Position numbers and translations under genes: made by a program | The notes under the pieces: generated by a model | What the model was told of the DNA's origin: nothing | What the model saw: only the letters and a program-made list of their open reading frames with translations | The model's database searches: none | NCBI GenBank assembly: GCA_942491185.1 | Contig: CALOAB010000004.1 | Span: 327,190-391,189, forward strand | Direction: 5' to 3' | Length of the DNA stretch: 64,000 bases | Origin: an uncultured Alphaproteobacteria bacterium | GTDB lineage: Bacteria; Pseudomonadota; Alphaproteobacteria; Geminicoccales; Geminicoccaceae | In this document: positions 47,243-62,163 of the stretch, piece by piece | Layout of the letters: the number at the start of each line of letters is the position of its first letter | How positions within the stretch are numbered: the stretch's first letter is position 1

Positions 47243-47317
47243 CGCTCCATCGAGCCCGTCCTAGGACGCCCGGACCCTCACCCACCGTTTATTTTTCTGC
47301 AGAGCAACAAAACCGTC

Positions 47318-49580
47318 ATGCCCGAGATCTCCGCGTCGAGCCCAGCCAGCGAGGCCGCCCCGCGTTGGCCGTTCTTCCGCGACCAGCCGAGCCGAATCGA
47401 GCTCGGGCCCCGTCAGGGTCACGAGCCGAGCACCCTGCCGCCGGTCAAGATCTTCCTCGGCACCGAGGAAGCGCAGTATCGGGCCGAGCGCATCTTCTTC
47501 TACTCCATCGAGAAGGTGCGCGACCCCGCCCGCACTTATGAAATCTACCTGATGAAGAACGTGCACGGCTTCGACCGGTCGAAGTGGCGGACGGGCTTCA
47601 CCAATTATCGCTACGCCATCCCGGAGTGGGCCGGCGGCAGCGGCCGGGCGATCTACAACGACGTCGACCAGATCTACCTCGCCGACCCTGCCCTGCTCTT
47701 CGACCTCGAGATGGGCAATCACGGCTACCTCGCGATCTCCGCCAAGGACACCTCGGTCATGCTGATCGATTGCGGGCGGATGGTCGATCTCTGGAACACC
47801 AAGACCGCGGCGACCCTGGGCAAGCACGCGCTGATCGACAAGCCGTCGTCGACGCCCGGGCTCTGGGGCGAGCTCGACGGCCACTGGAACGCCCGCGACC
47901 AGGAATATGTCGAGGGCCGCACCAAATGCCTGCACTACACGGCCCTGCACCAGCAACCCTGGCAGCCCACGCCGGAGGCCTTCTCCTACCACCCGAACCC
48001 GCTGGCCTATGTCTGGCACGATCTGGAGCGTGGCGCCGACGCCGAAGGCTACCAGGTGTTCACAAGAGAAGCCCCGAGCCCCGACTTCGCCGCCACGCTC
48101 GCCTTGGCGAATGGCAGCGACGAGCCGGCACCCATACCAGGCCCACTCGCTGCGAAGCTGGCCCGGGATCTGGCAGTCGCCGACGTGCTGGCCGTGCACC
48201 TGCCGGGTCAAGCGCCGGACGCGACACTGCCCGGTGACCTCGTGACCCGCGGGCTGGCGATCGACGGCACCGACACGCATTGGCCCGAGGAAGCGGCCGA
48301 TGCGGTGGTGGCGCCCAACCTGCTGATGGCGCTGCCGCCGGCCGACCTGCCCTGGCTGCTGGACCGATTGTTCACCGCCGCTCGCAAGCTCGTCCATCTC
48401 GACGCCACAGGGATAGCGCCGGATGGTCTCGGCAGTGCCGTGTGGTGGCGCCAGCGCGTCGAGGAGATCGCCGCTCGCCACCCGGGCAAGAGCTGGTCGC
48501 TGACGGTGGCCGACAAGGGAGCACCGATCCCCGGCACCATCCGCCACTTCACCATGCGCAGCCACGACCTGCCGGCAGACGGCACGACCTTGGTGCTGCT
48601 CGACGGTCAGACCGGCAAGAACGGCGAGGTGCGGGCGCTGGGCCGTGCCCTAGCCGACGGGCTCGGGCTCGACTGCACGGAGAAGAGCTGGCGAGAAGCG
48701 CCGACGGACAACATCATGGCACCTTGGCCAACCGTCATCGTCGCCGCCGGCAGGCGCTCCGCCAATGTGGCGCTCGAGATCAAGGCAAAGAACGGTGGTG
48801 CCACGCGGGTCGTGCAGCTCGGAACCACGGGCCTGCCGCTCGAGCGCTTCGACCTGGTCGTCGCCAACCCGGCCGAGCGCCTGCCTTTTCGCCCCAACAC
48901 GACGCAGATCACGGCCCCCTTGCAGCCCGCCAATGGGCACCAGGCGGCGGCCGGCGACCATCACGTCCTGGTCATCGGCCCGAGCGCCCAGCCGTTTCGC
49001 CGCAAGACCGAGGACCTGGCCAAGCTCGCCCGAGCCTTCGTCGAGCGGCCCGAGGCACCCAAGGCCGTCTGCTTCCTGGCCGGCGTCTCGGCACAGGATC
49101 GCGCCACCGTGCTGGCCGCCACGGGTGCCGATCACCGAGCTCGTCGATGACGATCTGCAAGCCGCCATCGACAAGGCGGCCCGCCTCTACGCCACCGGCG
49201 AGGATGGCCAGACCCTCACCCGGCTGTGTGCCAGCGGCAAGCCGGTGACGCTGCTGCCATTGCCCTACTGGTATGACGGGATTCCCGGCAACAAGCTGGT
49301 GCGCAGCGCCTTGACGCTCGTGATCGGTGGCGGAACGAGCTATCGCGGCACGCCGCACCAGCAGCATCTGCTGGCTCAGTTCGTCGATGGGCTGATCGTC
49401 CGCGGCTGGACCAGACTCCCTGTGGATCCCGCACGCCTGCATCGCTCGCTGATCGCGCGCGGCCTCCTGCATCCGCTCGACGAGACCGAGCCCATGGCCT
49501 CGCCGCACCCACTCGACGACCTCGAGCGGGTGACAGCGTCGGTCCGCAGCCTCTTGACCCGAGTGCCAGAAGCCGCCTGA
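47318..49580 (+). pseudogene. GT8-like glycosyltransferase / ELM1-family fusion protein, frameshifted inside the ELM1 domain
   Basis: N-terminus: IFLGTEEAQ...YNDVDQIYLADP (GT8-like DxD). C-terminus: LVLLDGQTGKNGEVRALGRALA...VIVAAGRRSANVAL...RFDLVVANP (ELM1-like). At the GGG run 49123-49125 the frame changes and the domain continues (PITELVDDD...YATGEDGQTLTRLCASGKPVTLLPL) to the stop at 49580. Confidence 0.7.
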
Positions 49581-49721: not shown

Positions 49722-50483
49722 ATGCTGACCTCCTGGGGACCTTGGAGCAACAAGGCCTATCACCTCGACAAGATGAGCCTGGGTGAACTGATTCGCGCCT
49801 TCTTCACCCATTACTCGATCCAGGCCTATCTGGTGCTGGCGACGCTGGCGATTGCCGTCTCGCTGCTGCTGATGACCAGCTTCTGGCAGCCGCTCATGGC
49901 CGCCATCGTGACCGCAGCACTCTACCCCCTGGTCGAGTATCTGGTGCACCGCTTCCTCTTGCACTCGACCTTCATGTTCAAGCACCGCTCGACCGCCAAG
50001 GTCTGGAAGCGGATCCACTACGACCATCACCAGAACCCGCACGACCTCTCGGTGCTGTTCGGTGCGCTCTACACGACGCTGCCGACCATAGCACTGATCG
50101 CCCTGCCGCTGGGGTGGCTGGTCGCCGGCCCGTCCGGCGCCTTCGCCGCGTTCGCTGCCGCCTGCATCGTGTTTTGCGGCTACGAGTTCGTCCACTGCGT
50201 CCAGCATCTGCCGTTCACCCCAAGCCTCGGCTGGCTACGCAACCTGAAGAAGCGGCATCTGGCCCACCACTTCCACAACGAGCACGGCAATTTCGGCATC
50301 ACCAGCAATGTCTGGGATCACGTCTTCGGCACGTTCTACGCCCAGCCGAAGGACCAGCCGAAGAGCGCCACCGTGCACAATCTCGGCTACACCAGCGACG
50401 CCCGCGCGCAATGGCCGTGGGTGGCGGAGCTATCGGCCGACGACGACACCTACGCCATCCGTCGCCGCCGCCGCGCCGCCTGA
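49722..50483 (+). CDS. fatty acid hydroxylase / sterol desaturase family protein
   Basis: 253-aa membrane protein with histidine boxes HRFLLH, HYDHHQNPHD and HLAHHFHNEH. Confidence 0.8.
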   Translation: MLTSWGPWSNKAYHLDKMSLGELIRAFFTHYSIQAYLVLATLAIAVSLLLMTSFWQPLMAAIVTAALYPLVEYLVHRFLLHSTFMFKHRSTAKVWKRIHYDHHQNPHDLSVLFGALYTTLPTIALIALPLGWLVAGPSGAFAAFAAACIVFCGYEFVHCVQHLPFTPSLGWLRNLKKRHLAHHFHNEHGNFGITSNVWDHVFGTFYAQPKDQPKSATVHNLGYTSDARAQWPWVAELSADDDTYAIRRRRRAA

Positions 50484-50505
50484 ACTCGGCAAGACGGAGC
50501 ATGGC

Positions 50506-51657
50506 GTGGTGAGCCAGAGGCCAAGCTCCGTAGCACTGCAATCCATCCACGATCGCGCCGACCTCAAGGCGTTCATCGAGAGCACACGCGCGATCTATGC
50601 GGATGATCCCTGCTGGGTGCAGCCGCTCACGCTCGAGCGCCTGGACCATCTGAACCCGAAGAAGAACCCGTTCCTCAAGGACATCGAGGCGGCCTACTGG
50701 CTCGTGCTGTTCGATGGCCGCCCGGTCGGCCGCATCTCCGCCCAGGTCAACAAGGCGCATCTCGAGCGCCACCAGGATGCCACAGGCCATTTCGGCTTCA
50801 TCGAGGCGATCGACGACGAGGAGGTGTTCGGCCTCCTGATCGACACCGCCGCTACCTGGCTTCGCCTGCGCGGCATGGAGCGGATGGCCGGGCCGTTCAG
50901 CCTCTCGATCAACGACGAGACCGGCACGCTGCTGAGCGGCTTCGACACACCGCCGCAAATGATGATGCCGCACGGCCAGCCGCATTACGACCGGCGGCTG
51001 CATGAGCAGGGCCTGGTCAAGGCCAAGGACCTCATCGCCTTCCGCATCGATGCCCAAGAGCCCTTCCCACGCGCCGCGTCGCGGCTCATCGAACGGACAC
51101 GAAAGACCGGCGGCCTGACGATCCGACCGCTCGACACCAGCCGGTTCGGCCAGGAGATCGCGCTGATCTGCGACATCTTCAACGACGCCTGGTCGGATAA
51201 TTGGGGCTTCATTCCCTTTGGCGATGCCGAGGCCCAGTATCTGGCGAAGTCGATCCGGCCGCTGGTCAACGGCAGCAATTTCGCGATCGCCGAGCTCGAC
51301 GGCGAGCCCGTCGCCATGACCGTCACCCTGCCCAACCTCAACGAGATGATCGCCGATCTCGACGGCCGGCTCTTGCCCTTCGGCTGGGCCAAGCTGCTCT
51401 GGCGGCTCAAGGTCACTGGCGTCAAGAGCGGGCGGATGCCGCTGATGGGTCTGCGCAAAAGCTGGCAGGGCACGCTCAAGGGCACAGCCGCTGCGATGGG
51501 CGTCATCGAGACCGTGAAGACCTACCACGCCGGCCGCGGCGTGCTCGAGGGCGAGCTGAGCTGGGTGCTGGAGGACAATCAAGCCGTCCAGCACATGATC
51601 GCGGCCGTGGGTGCTGTCCCCTACAAGACCTACCGAGTCTACGAGAAAGCGATCTGA
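50506..51657 (+). CDS. GNAT-fold acyltransferase-like protein of unknown specificity
   Basis: About 383 aa from GTG 50506 (GGAG 7 nt upstream). A conserved-looking soluble protein (FIEAIDDEEVF...GPFSLSINDETG.L..GF...P...MPH...YY...). The family name is not securely recalled. Confidence 0.6.
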   Translation: MVSQRPSSVALQSIHDRADLKAFIESTRAIYADDPCWVQPLTLERLDHLNPKKNPFLKDIEAAYWLVLFDGRPVGRISAQVNKAHLERHQDATGHFGFIEAIDDEEVFGLLIDTAATWLRLRGMERMAGPFSLSINDETGTLLSGFDTPPQMMMPHGQPHYDRRLHEQGLVKAKDLIAFRIDAQEPFPRAASRLIERTRKTGGLTIRPLDTSRFGQEIALICDIFNDAWSDNWGFIPFGDAEAQYLAKSIRPLVNGSNFAIAELDGEPVAMTVTLPNLNEMIADLDGRLLPFGWAKLLWRLKVTGVKSGRMPLMGLRKSWQGTLKGTAAAMGVIETVKTYHAGRGVLEGELSWVLEDNQAVQHMIAAVGAVPYKTYRVYEKAI

Positions 51658-51672
51658 CATGGCCCTGGCGCT

Positions 51673-52479
51673 GTGACCGGGGCGGAGCTCACGACCCTCG
51701 TGCTCGCCGGCGAGCGCGCCGAAGGCGATCCGATGGCCAGGGCCGCCGGTGTTGCGCTCAAGGCGATGCTGCCGGTGGCCGGCCAGCCGATGCTGGCACG
51801 GGTCGTGGGAGCACTCCGCGCGACGCCCTCGATCGGCCGCATCGTGGTCAGCATCCCGCGTCCGGCGCCGGCCGAGGAGCTCGGCGTCGAGGCGATCATG
51901 ACCGAGGCGTCGCCGAGCCTGTCGGTCTTGGCCGCCATCGACCAACTGCCGAGCCCGCTGCTCGTCACCACCGCCGATCATGCGCTGCTGACGCCGGAGA
52001 TCGTCCAGCGCTTCGTCGATCTGGCCACTGCCACCGACGACGCCGATCTCATCGTCGGCATGGTCGAGCGCGCGGTAATCGAGCGCCTCGTGCCCGAGAC
52101 CCGGCGGACCTATTGGCGGTTCAAGGGCGGTGCCTATTCCGGTGCCAACCTCTTCTTGCTCAAGACCCCGCGCGCCAGGACAGCCGTCGCCTTCTGGCGC
52201 CGGGTCGAGACCCAGCGCAAGCAACCATGGCGGATCGTCCGTGCCTTCGGGGCGAAGCTGCTGCTCGGCTATCTGTTGGGCCGGTTGTCGCTGGATGAGG
52301 CGATGGAGCGGGCGTCCGACCGGCTCGGCTGTCGCGTCCGGGCCGTGACCCTGCCCTTTGCGGAGGCCGCGATCGACGTCGACAAGCCGGCCGACCTCGC
52401 CCTGGTCGAGCGCCTGCTCCTGGATCGCCAGGACCATCCAGATGGCCAGCAACCAGCAGCCGAGCCGGCCCGCCCATGA
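51673..52479 (+). CDS. MobA-like NTP transferase (nucleotidyltransferase) family protein
   Basis: LVLAGERAEGDPMA....KAMLPVAGQPML at the N-terminus, plus LVTTADHALL. Confidence 0.7.
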   Translation: MTGAELTTLVLAGERAEGDPMARAAGVALKAMLPVAGQPMLARVVGALRATPSIGRIVVSIPRPAPAEELGVEAIMTEASPSLSVLAAIDQLPSPLLVTTADHALLTPEIVQRFVDLATATDDADLIVGMVERAVIERLVPETRRTYWRFKGGAYSGANLFLLKTPRARTAVAFWRRVETQRKQPWRIVRAFGAKLLLGYLLGRLSLDEAMERASDRLGCRVRAVTLPFAEAAIDVDKPADLALVERLLLDRQDHPDGQQPAAEPARP

Positions 52480-53465
52480 GTCTCATCGACCTCGCCCATA
52501 TCACCGACGTGCATCTCGGGCCGGTGCCCCGGGCGCATCTGGGTGAGCTGTTGAGCAAGCGGGCGCTGGGCTACCTCTCCTGGCACCGTCGCCGCCATCT
52601 TCTGCACCGGCAGAGCGTGCTGGACGCCCTGGCGGTGGATCTCGCCGCCGACCCGCCGGATCACATCGCGGTCACCGGCGACCTCGTCAATCTAGCACTA
52701 CCGGGCGAGTTCGAGCAGGCGGCGCGCTGGCTGGCAGCCACCGGCACAGCCGCCGAGGTGACCCTGGTGCCCGGCAATCACGATGCCTACACCGGCAAGA
52801 GCTACCGCCAGGGCTGGACCCGCTGGAGCGCCTACATGCAGGGCGACGGCCAGGCGGTTGGCGGCACGTTCCCCTTCGTCCGCGAGATCGGCCCAGGCCT
52901 CGTTCTCGTCGGCCTCTCGAGCGCCGTGCCGAGCCCCATCGGCTTCGCTTCGGGCCAGCTCGGGCCCACCCAGCTCCTGGCGCTGGACAAAGTCCTGGCC
53001 GAGCTCGGCGATGCCGGGCTTTGCCGGGTCGTCATGATCCATCATCCGCCGCTGGGGCCCCTGATCCGCCGCCGCCGCGCGCTGAAGGACGAGCTGGCGC
53101 TGCGCGTCGTGCTCGCCAGGCGCGGCGCCGAGCTGATCCTCGCCGGCCACCAGCACAGCTTCCTCCTGGGCACCCTGCCGGGCCCCGAGGCACCCGTACC
53201 GATCATTGCCGGGCCATCGGCCTCGCTCGTCCAGAGCCACCCGGAGGCCGGCGGCTATCTGCGCTACGCCATCGACCTTGCGGGCGACCGCCCGTCCATT
53301 ACACTGCAGCTTCGACGCTTCGATCCCACCAGCGGCGGCCTCGTGATCGAGCGAACCGGCCTGCTCGAGATTGCCGGCGACAGGCTCGCCATCCGGCCCA
53401 CGGACTGGCCGAAAAACAAGAGGGAGATCGCGTCCGCCGCAGCCGTCGGCGCCGGCGCCCGATGA
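52476..53465 (+). CDS. metallophosphoesterase
   Basis: Motifs HITDVHLG, VTGDLVN, GNHD, MIHHPP and AGHQH. ATGA overlap on both sides. Confidence 0.8.
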   Translation: MSLIDLAHITDVHLGPVPRAHLGELLSKRALGYLSWHRRRHLLHRQSVLDALAVDLAADPPDHIAVTGDLVNLALPGEFEQAARWLAATGTAAEVTLVPGNHDAYTGKSYRQGWTRWSAYMQGDGQAVGGTFPFVREIGPGLVLVGLSSAVPSPIGFASGQLGPTQLLALDKVLAELGDAGLCRVVMIHHPPLGPLIRRRRALKDELALRVVLARRGAELILAGHQHSFLLGTLPGPEAPVPIIAGPSASLVQSHPEAGGYLRYAIDLAGDRPSITLQLRRFDPTSGGLVIERTGLLEIAGDRLAIRPTDWPKNKREIASAAAVGAGAR

Positions 53466-54706
53466 CGTCCATGCTCGCGACAATCGACCGCTACCTCCTG
53501 GGTCAGGTCATGCGCCCGATGCTGGCCGCAATTCTGATCACGCTGCTCGCCATGCTGGCCGAGCGGGCGCTGCGCGTCATCGATCTGGTCCTCGGCTGGC
53601 GCGGCTCGCTCGCCATCGTCGTCGAGATGATGAGCTACCTCATCCCCCACTACATGGTGTTCGCGCTGCCGGCAGCGCTCTTCTTGGGCATCATGCTCGC
53701 CATTGCGCGGCTGTCCAAGGAAGCCGAGGTCGACGCCATGCGCGCTGCCGGGATCGGCCTGGCGCGGATCACCCGGCCGCTGATGCTCCTCGCCTTCGTC
53801 GTGCTGGTCCTGCACCTGGTGCTGGTGAGCCACCTGCAGCCCTATGCGCGCTACGCCTACCGCGCCGCCGCCTTCGCCATCACCAACGCCTCGTTCCAGA
53901 CCCTGCTGCGCCCGGGCCAGTTCATCACGCTGGGTCAGACCACCTACCGGGTGGACCGGCTGAGCGAGGACCGCGAGCAGTTCGAAGGCATCTTCCTGTT
54001 CTCAGAGGCCGACGCTGACGGGACCATCGTGATCACCGCCGAAGACGGCCGGATCGAGGAGCAGGGTGTGCTGGTGCCGCTGCTGCTGCACCTGGAGAAC
54101 GGCGTCCAGCAATTTGTGCCGCGGCCGGTCGAGGGCGAGAATGGGGGCACATCCTCGAGCAACGGCACGCCGCCACTGACACTCCGCTTCGGCAGCTTCA
54201 CCAGCGACCTCTCGGGCAGCGAGCCAGAGGCGTTCCGGCCACGCGGCGACCACGAGCGCGAGCTGACGATCCCGGAGCTGTTCGGCTTCATCGGCAAGCC
54301 CATCGAGCTCCTGCCCGAAGAAATCAAACCCTGGGAAATCGAGTCCGAGCTCTCGGCCAGGCTCGTGCGCAACCTGTCGATCCTCTTCGTGCCCCTGTTT
54401 GCCCTGCCGCTCGCCCTCTCGCCACGCCGCGCCAAGCGATCTTACGGCTTTCTCATCGGCGTCATCATCGTGGTCGGCTACAACCAGATCATCAGCACCG
54501 GCGAGTCGCTGGCCGACAACAATGAGCTGTCGTCGCTGATCGGCATCTGGCTGCCGTTTGTCGCCTTCGGCCTGGCGACCACCGCCTTCTTCATCCATTC
54601 CGCCAGGCGGGTTCCCGATCCCGGCAAGTCCTCGCTCTTGGGCACGACCATCGATGCGACGGTCAGCATGATCGCCCGACGCCTGCCCTGGCGGGCCGCC
54701 TCGTGA
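53462..54706 (+). CDS. lptF: LPS export ABC transporter permease LptF
   Basis: About 414 aa. IDRYLLGQVMRPMLAAILITLLAML start, six TM helices, and a large periplasmic loop between TM3 and TM4. Confidence 0.85.
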   Translation: MTSMLATIDRYLLGQVMRPMLAAILITLLAMLAERALRVIDLVLGWRGSLAIVVEMMSYLIPHYMVFALPAALFLGIMLAIARLSKEAEVDAMRAAGIGLARITRPLMLLAFVVLVLHLVLVSHLQPYARYAYRAAAFAITNASFQTLLRPGQFITLGQTTYRVDRLSEDREQFEGIFLFSEADADGTIVITAEDGRIEEQGVLVPLLLHLENGVQQFVPRPVEGENGGTSSSNGTPPLTLRFGSFTSDLSGSEPEAFRPRGDHERELTIPELFGFIGKPIELLPEEIKPWEIESELSARLVRNLSILFVPLFALPLALSPRRAKRSYGFLIGVIIVVGYNQIISTGESLADNNELSSLIGIWLPFVAFGLATTAFFIHSARRVPDPGKSSLLGTTIDATVSMIARRLPWRAAS

Positions 54707-55803
54707 AGCTGCTGACCCTGTATCTCAACCGTATCGTGCTGGTCCGCCTCACCGTGGTGACGATCGCCATGGTGCTGTTCGCCATGCTCTTCGACCTGAT
54801 GGATGCCTCGGACGATCTGATCCGCCGGGACGGCCCGGCGATCGTCACGTTCAGCCACTACTTCGTGCTGCGCTTTCCGAGCGTGCTCAACGAGATCCTG
54901 CCCTTTGCAGCGCTGGTCGGCAGCCTGTTTGCCGCCGCCGAGCTGATGCGCAACGGCGAGCTGACCGTGTTCTGGGCGTCGGGCATCTCGCCTTTGGGCG
55001 TGGTGCTGCGCCTCTTGCCGATCTGCCTTCTGGTCCTCGGCATCAAGCTCGCCAATGACGACATGCTGGTGCCCGGCACGGTGCAGGAGCTGCGCAGCTG
55101 GCAGGTCGGCTTCTTCAGCGGCGGCGTCGAAGGCTTCGTCGGCGACAATCTCTGGGTCGCCAGCGACACCCGCTTCATCCGCCTGCCGCGCCTCGACTGG
55201 GGCAAGACCGAGGTGGACGACGTGCTGATCCTCGAGCGCGACGACGTCGGCAACCTGGTCGAGCGAACGACCGCTGCGCACGCCGTCCTCGAGCCCGGCG
55301 CCTGGCGGCTCTCCGGCGTCGAGCGCAGCCGCGTCGGCGACGGGCGCATCGTCCGCGAGGACGAAGCCGTGTTCGAGAACACGATCGACCTCGAGCGGCT
55401 GCGCGTCGCCGCCAACCCGCCGCAGGAGGTGGCGCTGGCCGACCTCGTCGATATCGTCCGCAATGACGGCTACGGCGTCGTCACCACCCAAGGCCATGTC
55501 ACCGCCATCTACCACCGCCTGTTCGGCGCAGCGCAGCCGATGCTGATGATCATGCTGGCCTTCAGCCTGGCCCGCCGGGTCACCCGGCAAGGCGGTGTCG
55601 CCGGACTCTTCATCAAGGGCATCACGCTCGGCTTCGGCTTCGTGATCCTGAGCGGCCTGACGCTGGCGCTGGCCGAGGCCGGTTTTCTCGGCCCACTGGT
55701 CGCTACCGCAGGCCCGATCCTGCTCCTGGCAGCAATCGTCGTCCTCCTGCCGCTCCGCGAGGAACGCGGCCGATTCTTGCGCTTCAGGCCACGCCACGCC
55801 TGA
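54703..55803 (+). CDS. lptG: LPS export ABC transporter permease LptG
   Basis: 366 aa with a GTGA overlap with lptF. LTLYLNRIVLVRLTVVTIAMV start and the same YjgP/YjgQ topology. Confidence 0.85.
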   Translation: MKLLTLYLNRIVLVRLTVVTIAMVLFAMLFDLMDASDDLIRRDGPAIVTFSHYFVLRFPSVLNEILPFAALVGSLFAAAELMRNGELTVFWASGISPLGVVLRLLPICLLVLGIKLANDDMLVPGTVQELRSWQVGFFSGGVEGFVGDNLWVASDTRFIRLPRLDWGKTEVDDVLILERDDVGNLVERTTAAHAVLEPGAWRLSGVERSRVGDGRIVREDEAVFENTIDLERLRVAANPPQEVALADLVDIVRNDGYGVVTTQGHVTAIYHRLFGAAQPMLMIMLAFSLARRVTRQGGVAGLFIKGITLGFGFVILSGLTLALAEAGFLGPLVATAGPILLLAAIVVLLPLREERGRFLRFRPRHA

Positions 55804-56759
55804 TGCGTATCGGCCTGTTGAGCAACACCAGGAGCGAGCGCAACCGCAAGGGCATGACCGGCCTGGCGGCGGTGATCGACCAGGCGCCGGAGATCCTGCA
55901 TCGCCCGTTCCGTCCCGAAGAGGGCTTCGGCCCGCCCTTGCGCGCCATGGCCGAGGCCGGCGTCGAGCTCGTCGTGGTCAATAGCGGCGACGGCACGGTG
56001 CACGGCGTGCTCACCGAGCTGCTCGCTCACCAGCCCTTCGCCACCGTGCCGCGACTCGCCATCCTGCCGCGCGGCATGGCCAATATGAGCGCCGCCGATT
56101 GCGGGCTGAAAGGGTCCGGGCCGGACACCCTGGAGCGACTGCTGACCGCCTGCAGGCGCGGCACGCTCGACGACCACCTGGCCCCGCGCCACGTGCTCAA
56201 GGTCGACTATGCCGATGACCAGGTGGCGCCACGCGGCATGTTCATGGGTGCTGCCGGCATCGTCGACGTCATCAATCACGTCAAAGGCAAGCTGCACAGC
56301 CGCGGCGTCAAGGGCGAGTGGAGCCACGCCGCAGCCATTGTCGGCCTGCTCACCGGGGTGGTCACCAAGGGCTACGCGGCGCTCGGGCTCGAGCCGCACC
56401 AGGTCGGCGTCGCCGCTGACGGGATGCCGCGCCAGGACGAGCGGTTGCTGATCCTCATCGCCACCAGCCTGGAGCGGTTGGTGCTGCGCTCGCGGCCGTT
56501 CTGGGGCACTCGAGGCCGGCCCATCCGCCACATGCGCATCGGCTACGAGCCCAAGCGCCTGATCAGACTGGCGCCGCGCATCCTCTACGGCGACGACGGC
56601 CGAAAGCTGCCCGAGAACGACTACCGCAGCGGCGGCGCAGCCCGGCTCGACCTCTGGCTCGACGCCCCCTTTACGATCGACGGCGAGTTCTTCACACCGA
56701 GCCCTGACCGGCCGGTGCGCATCACCGCCGACGAAATCGTCCGCTTTGTCAGGCTCTAG
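55803..56759 (+). CDS. diacylglycerol-kinase-catalytic-domain (lipid kinase/YegS-like) protein
   Basis: IGLLSNTRSERN...VVVNSGDGTVHGVLTELL...LAILPRGMANMSA is a DAGK_cat/NAD-kinase-fold signature. TGATG overlap with lptG. Confidence 0.75.
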   Translation: MRIGLLSNTRSERNRKGMTGLAAVIDQAPEILHRPFRPEEGFGPPLRAMAEAGVELVVVNSGDGTVHGVLTELLAHQPFATVPRLAILPRGMANMSAADCGLKGSGPDTLERLLTACRRGTLDDHLAPRHVLKVDYADDQVAPRGMFMGAAGIVDVINHVKGKLHSRGVKGEWSHAAAIVGLLTGVVTKGYAALGLEPHQVGVAADGMPRQDERLLILIATSLERLVLRSRPFWGTRGRPIRHMRIGYEPKRLIRLAPRILYGDDGRKLPENDYRSGGAARLDLWLDAPFTIDGEFFTPSPDRPVRITADEIVRFVRL

Positions 56760-57651
56760 CCAAGTGCCCGCTGAACCAGCCACCCTCGAGCAGCTGATCG
56801 AGTCCGAGCTCGACGTACCCATCCCCGACGCCGTCGCGGCCATCGCCACGGCGGCGCGCGCCCGGCACGGCCAAGGTGTCTCGGCCATCCTCTTCTACGG
56901 CAGCTGCTACCGCGACGGCATCGTCGAGGACCGGCTGGTCGACCTCTATCTCCTCGCCGACGACTACCGCTCAGTGCACACCAATCGGATCAGCGCTCTC
57001 GCCAACCGGCTGGTGCCGCCCAATGTCTACTATCTCGAGACCGAAAGCGGCGGGCAAACCGTGCGCTGCAAATACGCGCTGCTCACCATGGCCCAGCTCG
57101 CGGCCAAGGTTTCGATGACCACGGACAACCCCTATTTCTGGGCCCGCTTCGCCCAGCCCACCGGCCTCGTCTGGTGCCGGGATGCGGCCACCAGGGAACG
57201 CGTCATCGACATCATGGGCAAGGCCGTGCGCACCACCTTCGCCGCGGCCCGGGCGCTCACCCACGACATGGCGGCGTCCGAGGCGCTCTGGACCATGGTC
57301 TTCATGGAGACCTACCGGACCGAGCTTCGGGCCGAGAAGCCCTACCGCGCCGCCGAAATCTACCAGAGCGGGGCCAAGCGCTACGACCGGATCACCAAGG
57401 CGCTCATCGCCGAAGGCATCAAGCCGCGCCCGCGCTCCTGGGCCGTGACCCGCCGCAACGGCAAGGCGCTCTCGATCCTTCGCCTGATCAAGGCCGCCTT
57501 CACCTTCACCGCCGGCGCCGACTACCTCGCCTGGAAGATCGAGCGCCACTCCGGCACCCACATCGAGCTCACCGACTGGCAACGCCGCCACCCGATCCTC
57601 GCCTCGCCGCCGATCCTCTGGCGCCTGCTCCGCAGCAAGGCGGTGCGCTGA
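56746..57651 (+). CDS. Tam41/Mmp37-like nucleotidyltransferase-fold protein (tentative)
   Basis: ILFYGSCYRDG...DLYLLADDY...NVYYLE......RCKYALLTMAQL......NPYFWARFAQPTGLV parallels the eukaryotic Tam41 pattern (YGSGV...D.I..V....VY.N......KYGV.....L.....LY.AGRLQKPV). TTG start at 56746 or GTG at 56764. Confidence 0.5.
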   Translation: MSGSSQVPAEPATLEQLIESELDVPIPDAVAAIATAARARHGQGVSAILFYGSCYRDGIVEDRLVDLYLLADDYRSVHTNRISALANRLVPPNVYYLETESGGQTVRCKYALLTMAQLAAKVSMTTDNPYFWARFAQPTGLVWCRDAATRERVIDIMGKAVRTTFAAARALTHDMAASEALWTMVFMETYRTELRAEKPYRAAEIYQSGAKRYDRITKALIAEGIKPRPRSWAVTRRNGKALSILRLIKAAFTFTAGADYLAWKIERHSGTHIELTDWQRRHPILASPPILWRLLRSKAVR

Positions 57652-57668: not shown

Positions 57669-59606
57669 TTAGAGCCCAGCCTTGCGAAAACCATCGAGCA
57701 GGTGACGCTGGTGCTCCGCACCGGTGACGCTGCTGGCGTAGATCTCACTATCGAAGAACGGACTGACCCGGCGCAATTGCACGGCCGAGCTTTCGGCTGC
57801 ATCGTTCTCGCCTAGCTGGGCGTGCGCCGCCGCCAGAATGGCATGTGGGGCTGGATCCTCGTCGAAGTTGCCAGTGAAGCGATCGAACAGAGCAATGACG
57901 TCGGCGTAGCGACCGGCAAGGTAGTAGGCCTGCCCGAGGTCGACGAGCCACCAGGCGAGCGGGTGGGGGTCGAGCTCCAGCGCGAGCTCCAGCGACCCGA
58001 CCGCCGCCTCCGGCCGGCCGGAATTGAGCATGATATTGCCGCGAATCCCATGGCTGAGCGCATCGTTGGGATTGAGCGTCAATGCACGGTCGATGACCGC
58101 TTCGGCCGTTGCGAAGTCTCGATGAAACGCGAGTATGAAAGCGCGCAACGCTTGGCCGGATGCGTTGCGATCATCGAGCTCGATCGCCCGGGACGCCGAA
58201 TCTTGTGCCTGATCGACGGCACGATGCGGCCACTGCGTCCACCCCCAGAGGAAATCGTTCAGCTGGGTCCAGCCGAGACCGACATACGCATCGGCATAGC
58301 CCGGATCGATGGCAATCGCCCGCTCGAAGAACGACCGCGCGTCGTAGTTGGCGCCGCGCTCGACCCGGCGCAGCAGGCTGCGGCCCCGCAGCACGAGGTC
58401 GTAGGCCCCAAGGCTCTCGGTGGGCCTGGCCAGCGCGTCTGCCTGCTCCAACCGGGTCACGCGCACCGCGAGCGCGGCCACCACCTGCTGCGTGATCCGG
58501 TCCTGGACCGCAAAGATATCCTCGAGCTGGTCATCGAAACGCTCGGACCAGAGGAGAACCCCCCGCTGGGCGTCGGTCAGCTCGACGGAGACGCGCAGCT
58601 GATCGCCCGACTGGCGGATCGTGCCGCCGACGACGTAGCGTGCGCCCAGCTCCTCAGCCAGCGCATCGAGCTCGACGGCGCGTCCCTTGAAGGGCGCAAC
58701 AGCGCTCCACGAGAGCACCAGCAGCCCAGAAAAGCGCCCCAGCGCCCGGATGATGTCCTCGCTCACCCCGTCGCTGAAGTAATCCTGAACGCCAGCACCG
58801 CTTTGGTCCCTGAAGGGAAGAACGGCGATCGTCGGCTTGCCGATGCCGGCCACGACTGTGTCGGCGCCACTCTTCCCGTCCGAGATCGCGACGTCACCGC
58901 CTGTCGGCAGCCAATTCGGCGCCAGCGCGACCACGGCGCCAAGAGCCAGAACCGCCGCGGTCGCGGCCAGGGCCACGCGCCATGTCTTTCGACGGCCTGG
59001 AGCCGGTCGTCGGCTGCGGCTCTCGCCCGCCCCTCCGGCAACGGCATAGACCCGGATCGGCTCGGCGATGTTCTTGACGTGGCACAAGCCTCGATCGGTG
59101 AAACCCACATCGAGCTTGCCGGCCGCTTGATCGCGCACCGCACCGGCAACCACGATTCCGCCGGGCTCGGCCAGCGCTTCGAGCCGCGCCGCTACATTCA
59201 CACCGGTACCGAAGATATCGTCGCCGTCGACGATGACATCGCCGAGATTGAGCCCGATCCGAAACAAGAGCTGCTCTTCCGGCGGCACACCGGTATTGCG
59301 CTCGGCAATGGCCCGCTGCATGGCGATCGCCGCAGTGAGCCCCTCCGTCACGCTCGTGAACGTTGCCAGCACGGCATCACCGGCGGTGCCGATCAACCTG
59401 CCGCCATGCTTGTCGAGAGCCGCATCGATCAATTGGCGCGACGCCATCAGCCGCGCATGCGTGCCGGCCTCGTCGAGCTCCATCAGCCGGCTGTAGCCGG
59501 CGACATCGCCATGCAGAACGACCGCGAGCCGGCGCATCGGGCCCTCAGGCCCAGCGCCGCCTGCATGCTCTGCTTCAGCCATCACCGCAGTCTCGCTGAT
59601 CGACAC
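57669..59606 (-). CDS. membrane-anchored class III adenylate/guanylate cyclase with periplasmic TolB-N-like + TPR module (copy 1)
   Basis: Catalytic core LAVVLHGDVAGYSRLM, GTAGDAVLATF and GTGVNVAARLE. One TM (WRVALAATAAVLALGAVVALAP). KPTIAVLPFRDQSG...YFSDGVSEDIIRALGRFSGLLV, then TPRs. Alternative ATG start at 59582. Confidence 0.85.
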   Translation of the reverse strand: MSISETAVMAEAEHAGGAGPEGPMRRLAVVLHGDVAGYSRLMELDEAGTHARLMASRQLIDAALDKHGGRLIGTAGDAVLATFTSVTEGLTAAIAMQRAIAERNTGVPPEEQLLFRIGLNLGDVIVDGDDIFGTGVNVAARLEALAEPGGIVVAGAVRDQAAGKLDVGFTDRGLCHVKNIAEPIRVYAVAGGAGESRSRRPAPGRRKTWRVALAATAAVLALGAVVALAPNWLPTGGDVAISDGKSGADTVVAGIGKPTIAVLPFRDQSGAGVQDYFSDGVSEDIIRALGRFSGLLVLSWSAVAPFKGRAVELDALAEELGARYVVGGTIRQSGDQLRVSVELTDAQRGVLLWSERFDDQLEDIFAVQDRITQQVVAALAVRVTRLEQADALARPTESLGAYDLVLRGRSLLRRVERGANYDARSFFERAIAIDPGYADAYVGLGWTQLNDFLWGWTQWPHRAVDQAQDSASRAIELDDRNASGQALRAFILAFHRDFATAEAVIDRALTLNPNDALSHGIRGNIMLNSGRPEAAVGSLELALELDPHPLAWWLVDLGQAYYLAGRYADVIALFDRFTGNFDEDPAPHAILAAAHAQLGENDAAESSAVQLRRVSPFFDSEIYASSVTGAEHQRHLLDGFRKAGL

Positions 59607-60246: not shown

Positions 60247-62163
60247 TCAAAGACCAGCCTTGCGCAAGCCCTCCAGCACATGGCGACTTTGCTCGGGCGT
60301 GCCGAGCAGGCTCGCGAACGCCTCGGCATTGAAGAACGGAGCCGTCCGGCGGAGCCGATCGACTGCCGCGGCCGCTTGATCGCCCTGGTCGAGCTGCGCA
60401 TGTGAAGCGGCGAGGATGGCGTGCCACAGCGGCTCCTCACGGACCTCGTCGTCGAACCGATCGATCAGCGCGATCGCATCGGCGTAGCGGCCTTCCAGGT
60501 AGTAGGCGCCGACAAGGCTCTGCAGCGAATCGACCGTCGGATTCGGATCGATCTGCAGCGCCAGCTCCATCGACGAACGCGCCACATCGGGGCGACCGGT
60601 GAAGATCGCCACGCTCGCGCGGATCGCCAGGCTCTCGGCGCTGTTGGGATTGAGGTCGATCGCCCGATCGATCTCGCGCTCGGCGCCCGCAAAGTCGCCC
60701 TTGAACTTCAAGACATCGGCCTGCAGCGCATGGGCCGAAGCGTTCTGCGGATCGAGTGCGATCGCGCGCGATGCTTCCGCGTCGGCCGCAGCCAAAGCGC
60801 GATCGGGCCACTGCGTCCAGCCGAACTTGATATCGTTGAGGTAGGTCCAGCCGCGCTCGACATGCGCATCGGCATAGTCCGGATCGATGGCAATGGCGCG
60901 CTCGAACATCTCCCGCGCCTCGAAATTCGTGACACGCTCGAGGCGACGCAGCAGGTCTCGGCCGTGCAGCACGAGATCATAGGCGCCGAGGCTCTCAGTG
61001 GGCTTGGCGAAGGACTGGGCTTGCTCCGCCTGCGTGACCCGAATGGCGAGCGCCGCCACCAGCTGCCGGGTGATCCGATCCTGCAGCTCGAAGACATCGG
61101 CCAGCTCCTCGTCGAAGCGCTCGGACCAGAGCAGCACACCGCCCTCGGCGTCGCTCAGCTGGACATTGACCCGGAGCCGGTCGCCCGCCCGCTGGATCGA
61201 TCCGCTCACGACGTAGCGGGCACCCAGCTGCGCCGCCAGGTCGTCGAGCGGCGCCGGTCCGTCCTTGTAGGGCGCAACCGCGCTCCAGGAGAGCACCAGC
61301 AAGCCCGAGAAACGGCCGAGCGCGCTGATCACCTCCTCGGTCACGCCGTCGCTGAAATACGCCTCGGCCGCCTCGCCGCTACGATCCTCGAACGGCAGCA
61401 CCGCGATCGTGGGCTTGCCCGCAGGGGCAACGGCCTCGGCGGGTGCCTCGTCGGCCGGCGCCACCACCTCCGATTCGCCGACCAGGCCCAACGGCCCAAA
61501 GGTCAGGAATGCACCGAGCCCGCCCACGACGATCACCGCGAGCACGGCTGCCGGCACCAGCATTCGGCGGCGCGGCCGGCGGCGACGCGCACCGCTCGAC
61601 GACGTGCCGACGGCGAAGACGCGAACGGGCTCCTCGATGTTCTTCAGGCTGTGCGCGCCCAAATCCTCGAACGCGACATCGAGCGAACCGGCGCGCTTGC
61701 CGGCGAGCTGGTCGTGCACCGCGGCTGAGACGGCAATGCCGCCGGGCTCCGCCAGCGCCTCGATACGCGCCGCCACATTCACGCCGTTGCCGAACACGTC
61801 GTCACCATCGACGATGACGTCGCCGAGATTGAGCCCGATGCGAAACGCCAGCTGCTGGTCGGCCGGCAACGCCGCGTTGCGCTCGGCGAGTGCGGCCTGG
61901 ATCTCGACCGCCGCCGTCAGCGCCTCGACGACGCTCTCGAAGATGGCGAGCACGGCATCGCCCGCGGTCCCGACGACGCGGCCACGATGCCGAACGAGCC
62001 GCTCGTCGATGACCTGTCGACAGGCCATCAGCCGGGCGTGCGTGCCGGCCTCGTCGATACCCATGAGCCGACTGTAGCCAGCGACATCGGCATGCAGGAT
62101 GGCTGCCAGCCGCCGCGTTGTGCTGCCGCCGGAAATCTGGTCCACAGAACCGGTTTCAACCAC
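60247..62163 (-). CDS. membrane-anchored class III adenylate/guanylate cyclase with periplasmic TolB-N-like + TPR module (copy 2)
   Basis: Same architecture as copy 1 (LAAILHADVAGYSRLM, GTAGDAVLAIF, GNGVNVAARIE, one TM, KPTIAVLPFEDRSG...YFSDGVTEEVISALGRFSGLLV, TPRs). Collinear similarity along the whole length. Confidence 0.85.
   Translation of the reverse strand: MVETGSVDQISGGSTTRRLAAILHADVAGYSRLMGIDEAGTHARLMACRQVIDERLVRHRGRVVGTAGDAVLAIFESVVEALTAAVEIQAALAERNAALPADQQLAFRIGLNLGDVIVDGDDVFGNGVNVAARIEALAEPGGIAVSAAVHDQLAGKRAGSLDVAFEDLGAHSLKNIEEPVRVFAVGTSSSGARRRRPRRRMLVPAAVLAVIVVGGLGAFLTFGPLGLVGESEVVAPADEAPAEAVAPAGKPTIAVLPFEDRSGEAAEAYFSDGVTEEVISALGRFSGLLVLSWSAVAPYKDGPAPLDDLAAQLGARYVVSGSIQRAGDRLRVNVQLSDAEGGVLLWSERFDEELADVFELQDRITRQLVAALAIRVTQAEQAQSFAKPTESLGAYDLVLHGRDLLRRLERVTNFEAREMFERAIAIDPDYADAHVERGWTYLNDIKFGWTQWPDRALAAADAEASRAIALDPQNASAHALQADVLKFKGDFAGAEREIDRAIDLNPNSAESLAIRASVAIFTGRPDVARSSMELALQIDPNPTVDSLQSLVGAYYLEGRYADAIALIDRFDDEVREEPLWHAILAASHAQLDQGDQAAAAVDRLRRTAPFFNAEAFASLLGTPEQSRHVLEGLRKAGL

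Follow-up and report, generated by a model that had tools for sequence, protein, structure and literature searches.

We analysed a stretch of 64,000 nucleotides from an uncultured alphaproteobacterium of the family Geminicoccaceae (GenBank assembly GCA_942491185.1, contig CALOAB010000004.1, positions 327,190 to 391,189), which as a whole we call the window, and focus here on two adjacent plus-strand genes directly behind an lptF-lptG pair, the first encoding a lipid kinase and the second a protein with a distant resemblance to the cytidylyltransferase Tam41. The pair is very probably orthologous to cpgB and cpgC, the two genes with which head-group synthesis starts in the ceramide phosphoglycerate (CPG/CPG2) pathway. 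The mapping of fold, profile and invariant residues suggests that the CpgC family keeps a Tam41-like active site, and this provides a concrete hypothesis, with cytidine diphosphate (CDP)-ceramide as the intermediate, together with a set of residues to mutate.

A lipid kinase and a Tam41-like gene in a conserved sphingolipid cluster

The pair consists of the following genes (positions are those of the window):

55803-56759, plus strand, cpgB-like lipid kinase with ceramide as its predicted substrate, 318 amino acids (DAGK_cat domain, SGDGT motif, synteny)
56764-57651, plus strand, cpgC-like putative nucleotidyltransferase of Tam41 fold, 295 amino acids (AlphaFold2 model and Foldseek, hhalign, PF09139 matches of relatives; start placed from homologues)

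Both open reading frames (ORFs) were confirmed as real. They form the end of a long row of plus-strand genes with a coding-type GC content at third codon positions (0.79 in the frame of the kinase, 0.87 in that of the second ORF). Furthermore, the second ORF is not a chance frame, since we found 1631 homologues at E<=1e-3 in 90% clusters and 1491 representatives of 50% clusters, the nearest relatives being proteins of Geminicoccaceae and other Alphaproteobacteria. The position of the pair directly behind lptG, given in a preliminary description of the window, agrees with our annotation, in which lptG (54703-55803) has lptF immediately upstream and its stop codon has one base in common with the kinase ATG (TGATG). 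The same description had the second ORF overlapping the kinase gene. The homologues of the second protein are about 295 amino acids long and begin where Val7 stands, so that the GTG at 56764 is the likely start, not the TTG at 56746; this GTG sits 4 nt past the kinase stop codon (56757-56759), and the two genes are probably tightly packed with no overlap.

The product of the first gene is a lipid kinase of the DAGK_cat fold, as had been proposed: the quoted motifs NSGDGTVHGV and LAILPRGMANMSA are present in the translation, and the match to Pfam DAGK_cat lies above the cut-off (E 1.6e-10, 41.1 bits, cut-off 23.6). This match comprises only the N-terminal catalytic subdomain (residues 47-115), and matches to YegS-type lipid kinases in NCBIfam and PDB are weak. 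CpgB has been characterised by a GGDG-type ATP-binding motif and by the lack of a CxxxCxxC motif (bioRxiv 10.1101/2023.05.01.538943). The window kinase combines the DAGK_cat domain with a motif of this type (SGDGT, residues 61-65), and CxxxCxxC is absent from its translation.

The kinase gene and the Tam41-like gene are constant members of a conserved cluster of sphingolipid genes. We assessed this in the 80 closest relatives from a scan of species-representative genomes, in which the second protein is 45-91% identical to that of the window; most of these loci belong to Geminicoccaceae, Rhodospirillales, Hyphomicrobiales, Kiloniellales, Pelagibius and Fodinicurvata, and many of the loci without the cluster genes are truncated contigs. 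Counting by tblastn with the window proteins, we found that the kinase gene immediately precedes the Tam41-like gene at every locus (80/80) and that lptF-lptG lies upstream at 69/80. The gene for an NTP transferase and that for a metallophosphoesterase were each present at 64/80 loci, a conserved protein of 449 amino acids was encoded next to the NTP_transf_3 gene at 63/80 and a fatty-acid hydroxylase at 31/80. At 64/80 loci the pair is closely followed by a convergent gene for serine palmitoyltransferase (spt), with a cerR-like gene (56/80) and an aasR-like gene (55/80) beside it. The conserved order is thus hydroxylase, unknown protein, NTP-transferase, metallophosphoesterase, lptF, lptG, kinase and Tam41-like gene, usually with spt downstream.

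Compared by domain type, each gene of this arrangement has its counterpart in a published system, which is why we assign the window pair to cpgB and cpgC. In Caulobacter the sphingolipid locus spans CC_1152 to CC_1168. CpgB (CC_1160) is a biochemically proven ceramide kinase (bioRxiv 10.1101/2023.05.01.538943), which also phosphorylates diacylglycerol in vitro (PMC11324152 S1 Text), and orthologues published for it are merely 25-28% identical to the Caulobacter enzyme. CpgC (CC_1161), which carries an InterPro Tam41/Mmp37 domain (PMC11324152 S1 Text), is required together with CpgB for CPG and, by genetics, is needed for the step that leads from ceramide-1-phosphate to CPG (PMC11324152, PMC12275187). 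The listed CpgC orthologues include HNE_1589 and Swit_3902, and identity of the published orthologues to CC_1161 is 30-39% (PMC11324152 supplements). LptG2 and LptF2 correspond to CC_1155 and CC_1156 (bioRxiv 10.64898/2026.04.12.717747). In Hyphomonas neptunium, HNE_1586 to 1590 are arranged as lptF2, lptG2, cpgB, cpgC and spt (PMC11324152 supplements), and the order lptF-lptG-kinase-Tam41-like gene in the window is the same.

The lipid is almost certainly ceramide and not diacylglycerol or phosphatidate, because the pair lies in a sphingolipid locus and the genome has both spt and an ordinary CdsA. The backbone genes expected alongside a cpgC are indeed encoded on the same contig: at C4:243067-247525 we found an aasR-type gene (acyl-ACP synthetase-like), a cerR-type gene (NAD-dependent reductase), a gene for an acyl carrier protein of about 80 amino acids with a DS motif (acpR), and spt, whose product scores 608 bits against the NCBIfam equivalog model (cut-off 500). 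The block precedes the window by about 80 kb, and its distance upstream of the kinase gene is about 134 kb. It has moved in this genome, and the 10-kb flank downstream of the pair lacks it both here and in the close relatives L023, L025, L026 and L028. In the window the place that spt has in most relatives is occupied by two minus-strand paralogues (57669-59606 and 60247-62163) with an adenylate/guanylate cyclase domain, a TolB-N-like segment and tetratricopeptide repeats. As for CdsA, the genome encodes the canonical enzyme (PF01148, 197 bits), so that a second CDP-diacylglycerol synthase would be superfluous. A search of the genome for cpgA with PF01066 returned four CDP-alcohol phosphatidyltransferase genes, none of them in a recognisable cpgA-HIT-cpgD arrangement.

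Relationship of the second protein to Tam41

The preliminary description had noted that the second ORF resembles Tam41, and had asked for a profile or structure comparison. The comparison supports a genuine, very distant relationship, in which Tam41 is the best match by fold and the motifs are collinear. The second protein contains FYGSCYRDG, VDLYLL, PPNVYY, CKYALL and YFWARFAQP. The Pfam model of the Tam41 family (Tam41_Mmp37, PF09139) gave no match to it at E<=1 and none in the whole genome at E<=10; the model is likewise silent in the genome of Caulobacter, used as a control, which encodes CpgC. A profile search of PDB sequences never listed Tam41 for the second-protein family.

An AlphaFold2 model of the second protein, built on 28 homologues, reached a predicted local distance difference test score (pLDDT) of 87.4 and a predicted template modelling score (pTM) of 0.86. 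In a Foldseek search of the PDB its five best matches were all Tam41 (6IG4 and 6IG2 from S. pombe, 7ECD from Firmicutes), with E 1.1e-7 to 1e-6 and template modelling (TM) scores of 0.44-0.54 over 277-293 columns. The next group, with ANT(4'), lincosamide nucleotidyltransferases and HalB, followed at E>=8e-5 and TM scores of about 0.3. The model thus has the overall fold of Tam41, i.e. a nucleotidyltransferase domain and a second domain.

For profile comparisons we used an alignment of 28 close homologues (A1), one of 61 mutually divergent representatives of 50% clusters (A4) and one of 20 bona fide PF09139 proteins gathered using the Tam41 sequences from the PDB (A3). With hhalign, A4 matched A3 at E 5.7e-4 and a probability of 30% over 161 collinear columns; the match became significant only once the profile had been rebuilt from the 50%-cluster representatives. 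This points to homology across the catalytic region on evidence that is significant but modest, and the assignment to Tam41 rests on several concordant lines, the profile-profile E-value itself being modest. Individually, 9/61 relatives in A4 matched PF09139 (best E 5e-5), which was the commonest Pfam family among the 61.

At most of the positions aligned between A4 and A3, both families show little or no variation. They are the following (second-protein family first, Tam41 second):

Y51-G52-S53 and Y28-G29-S30
D66 and D47
N87, P92 and N62, P67
K109-Y110 and K106-Y107
Y130 and Y126
R134-F135 and R130-F131
P138 and P134
Y190 and Y180
R195 and R185
A196-E197, P199 and A189-E190, P192

A hallmark of Tam41 is that one canonical nucleotidyltransferase acidic residue of three is kept and that basic residues position cytidine triphosphate (CTP) (PMC11646218). 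The second protein shows the same pattern: its sole acidic residue of this type is the invariant D66 in VDLYLL, the usual second acidic position being Y68, and the invariant K109, R134 and R195 of its family align with the invariant K106, R130 and R185 of Tam41. As judged from sequence and model, the resemblance is real, and the second protein appears to represent a remote offshoot of the Tam41 superfamily that the Pfam model does not reach.

The preliminary description had also drawn attention to the presence of protein families best known from mitochondria. We rejected a mitochondrial ancestry as unsupported. The Tam41 of Firmicutes and that of S. pombe share 44% identity, whereas the family of the second protein is found only by profile and fold and is therefore not a close relative of mitochondrial Tam41. 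With the Firmicutes enzyme so much closer to the eukaryotic one, nothing in these sequence comparisons suggests a special link from alphaproteobacterium to mitochondrion for Tam41.

Candidate reactions of the CpgC-like protein

In the mechanism that we consider, the CpgB-like kinase would turn ceramide into ceramide-1-phosphate. Tam41 makes CDP-diacylglycerol and pyrophosphate from CTP and phosphatidate, and the CpgC-like protein would make CDP-ceramide and pyrophosphate from CTP and ceramide-1-phosphate. The activated phosphate of CDP-ceramide would then be attacked by glycerate or phosphoglycerate, giving the anionic head group. The C-terminal 75 residues of the second protein are basic (15 K+R vs 4 D+E); the Tam41 C-terminus binds the membrane, and the basic region of the CpgC-like enzyme probably holds it on the inner membrane. 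The adjacent lptFG would export the sphingolipid product. We regard this course of events, a transfer of cytidine monophosphate (CMP) to ceramide-1-phosphate followed by the attack of glycerate or phosphoglycerate, as having about an even chance of being correct. The broader proposal, that CpgC-type proteins are CTP:ceramide-1-phosphate cytidylyltransferases and that CDP-ceramide is a general activated intermediate of bacterial phosphosphingolipid head groups, is made more tentatively, and we place it slightly below an even chance.

A two-step activation by a kinase and then a CMP-transferase had been suggested in the preliminary description. The logic of the two steps seems reasonable; diacylglycerol or phosphatidate, named there besides ceramide, does not agree with the sphingolipid locus, spt and CdsA. 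The idea itself is not new: both the Tam41-type domain and ceramide activated with a nucleoside diphosphate (NDP) have been discussed in PMC11324152 (2024), where Olea-Ozuna et al. suggested that NDP-activated ceramide might arise via CpgC.

Several points weigh against the assignment to cpgC and the reactions just described. At the level of sequence, the second protein has no Pfam, NCBIfam or PDB sequence match, even at E<=10, and hhalign with the shallow alignment A1 against 2 or 20 Tam41 sequences gave collinear matches at only E 0.035-0.039. The orthology to Caulobacter CpgB and CpgC is set by synteny and a shared domain type, and the spt of this genome is about 134 kb off and not beside the pair. 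As to the chemistry, the enzyme activity is a prediction for any CpgC, whose mechanism was called unidentified in the literature of June 2025 and May 2026; we found no mention of CDP-ceramide in the literature searched and identified no obvious candidate for the transferase of the glycerate step.

A different role in the same pathway would leave the Tam41-like protein acting on the head group, not as a simple cytidylyltransferase; it may itself join glycerate or phosphoglycerate to ceramide-1-phosphate, either by way of a nucleotidylated intermediate formed transiently within a single active site, or as a phosphotransferase that uses a CDP-activated donor. The latter reaction is carried out by LicD/fukutin-type enzymes, which have the nucleotidyltransferase fold. 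Such a role would be consistent with the genetics in Caulobacter, where cpgB and cpgC are the only genes required for CPG, and with the core of the conserved cluster, in which the 80 loci have no separate CDP-alcohol transferase. Also in its favour are K240, K249, K264, H268 and R281-H282, which are invariant in A1 and lie beyond the Tam41-aligned region, with K249 and K264 still invariant in the diverse A4. Attachment of glycerate to ceramide-1-phosphate by CpgC was proposed by Zik et al., while Olea-Ozuna et al. deem a direct attachment energetically unfavourable (PMC11324152). Since the best match in both fold and motifs is Tam41, a lipid-phosphate cytidylyltransferase, we consider this reading, the main rival, rather unlikely.

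Two further explanations would take the pair out of head-group synthesis, and both appear far less probable. It is very improbable that the two proteins provide a CdsA-independent glycerophospholipid route from diacylglycerol via phosphatidate to CDP-diacylglycerol: Tam41, the Firmicutes enzyme included, is a CDP-diacylglycerol synthase, and the in vitro activity of Caulobacter CpgB on diacylglycerol would fit such a route, but the genome has its canonical CdsA, the pair is locked in the sphingolipid cluster beside spt in most relatives, and the family is far from the true PF09139 enzymes, with no direct Pfam match. We give hardly any credence to the view that the second ORF encodes a generic two-domain nucleotidyltransferase (aminoglycoside-nucleotidyltransferase-like or of MNT type) unrelated to lipids. 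Foldseek also returned ANT(4'), LinB, AadA and HalB at E 1e-4 to 1e-2, and the profile search of the PDB gave a weak match to an MNT-type nucleotidyltransferase over the YGS...D segment (E 0.014-0.31). However, the TM scores of those Foldseek matches are about 0.3 against about 0.5 for Tam41, the motifs KY, RF.QP, Y..LR and AE.P, which are specific to Tam41 and lie beyond the nucleotidyltransferase core, are conserved, and the kinase, lptFG and spt accompany the gene invariably or nearly so.

If the formation of CDP-ceramide by CpgC-type proteins is correct, CDP-ceramide would be the sphingolipid counterpart of CDP-diacylglycerol. The CpgC step is the one unsolved step on the way from ceramide-1-phosphate to the anionic sphingolipids, which in Caulobacter allow survival without lipopolysaccharide (LPS) and are the target of polymyxin and colistin. 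The window brings no new concept to the CpgC question; what it adds is a Geminicoccaceae-like lineage and a compact, highly conserved version of the cluster.

Neighbouring genes and comparison with known systems

Upstream of the pair the window contains the remaining genes of the cluster:

54703-55803, plus strand, lptG-type permease, half of the only lptFG pair of the genome (Pfam LptF_LptG, E 6e-52)
53462-54706, plus strand, lptF-type permease (Pfam LptF_LptG, E 4e-58)
52476-53465, plus strand, calcineurin-like metallophosphoesterase (Pfam Metallophos, E 1.1e-12)
51673-52479, plus strand, MobA/CofC-like NTP transferase (Pfam NTP_transf_3, E 2.6e-13; weak CofC and MobA matches)
50308-51657, plus strand, conserved protein with no family match (conservation beside the NTP_transf_3 gene)
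49722-50483, plus strand, fatty-acid hydroxylase family protein (Pfam FA_hydroxylase, E 2.2e-19)
47243-49577, plus strand, ELM1-family gene (Pfam PF06258 matches in two frames, including the ORF 47243-49150)

The two permeases score below the NCBIfam equivalog cut-offs (190.9 bits for LptG, cut-off 240; 196.8 bits for LptF, cut-off 230). The product of 50308-51657, with no match in Pfam or NCBIfam, belongs to a family of about 380-449 amino acids, and its true start is probably later than 50308, because the listed ATG overlaps the hydroxylase gene by 176 nt. It is possibly a ceramide synthase, since it stands beside the NTP-transferase gene as bCerS (CC_1154) stands beside CC_1153, a suggestion drawn from position only; the hydroxylase is possibly one of the ceramide acyl chain. 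The ELM1-family gene, whose presence in the cluster had been described before and is borne out by the PF06258 match, is a continuous ORF of about 760-815 amino acids in the relatives L023, L026, L030 and L039 and is frameshifted near 49130 in the window. In tblastn with the intact orthologue of 778 amino acids from L026, residues 1-629 aligned in one frame as far as 49129, after which the alignment changed to the next frame at 49131 for residues 630-778. The break marks a pseudogene or else an error of sequencing or assembly.

We surveyed lptFG in the window genome (96% complete) and in the relatives G001-G015. The lptF-lptG genes at 53462-55803 are the sole LptF_LptG pair of the window genome, and a single pair was likewise counted in all genomes sampled from its genus and family. 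This sole lptFG lies inside the sphingolipid cluster although the genome has lpxC, and in G024, a relative at class level with two pairs, it is the pair in the sphingolipid cluster, not the other one, that the window pair resembles. For these reasons the single pair may extract both LPS and the anionic sphingolipid. In Sphingomonas wittichii one lptFG pair occurs together with sphingolipids instead of LPS (bioRxiv 10.64898/2026.04.12.717747).

When compared with Tam41, the second protein shares an N-terminal nucleotidyltransferase domain with another domain behind it (which is helical in the model), the motifs YGS, hDhhh, N...P, KY, Y...RF.(Q/K)P, Y...(L/T)R and AE(K/N)P, the one retained nucleotidyltransferase aspartate and a basic C-terminal region. 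It differs in that identity is merely about 13-22%, with no direct Pfam match, in the C-terminal third of its family (GK.LS..RL.KA.FTF.GG.DY..WKI.RHSG...RRHP), which has no aligned counterpart in Tam41, and in a genomic context that indicates ceramide-1-phosphate and not phosphatidate as the substrate.

The closer comparison is with Caulobacter. The window kinase has in common with CpgB (CC_1160/CCNA_01218) the DAGK_cat fold, a GGDG-type motif (SGDGT here), a position directly upstream of a cpgC-like gene and a hydrophobic segment midway along the sequence; in its case the Pfam match is limited to residues 47-115 and the ceramide substrate is a prediction. Like CpgC (CC_1161/CCNA_01219), the second protein has a Tam41/Mmp37-type domain and is encoded after a cpgB-type gene behind lptF-lptG in a sphingolipid locus. 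Unlike in Caulobacter, about 134 kb of the contig separate the pair from spt, acpR, cerR and aasR, the cluster of the window lacks cpgA and cpgD, and the adjacent lptFG is the only pair of the genome and not a second copy. The likeness extends to the calcineurin-type phosphoesterase CC_1158, which has the same domain type as 52476-53465, and to the MobA/CofC-like nucleotidyltransferase CC_1153, which corresponds in the same way to 51673-52479 (PMC11324152 S1 Text). Finally, the lptF-lptG pair of the window is found, as are LptF2 and LptG2 of Caulobacter, inside the sphingolipid locus and directly upstream of cpgB, the difference being that Caulobacter has two lptFG pairs whereas the window genome and the sampled family have one. 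A sole lptFG among sphingolipid genes bears on the relation of LPS export to sphingolipid export and, if the single pair does handle both substrates, suggests that LptF2G2 of Caulobacter arose by duplication of a dual-substrate ancestor.

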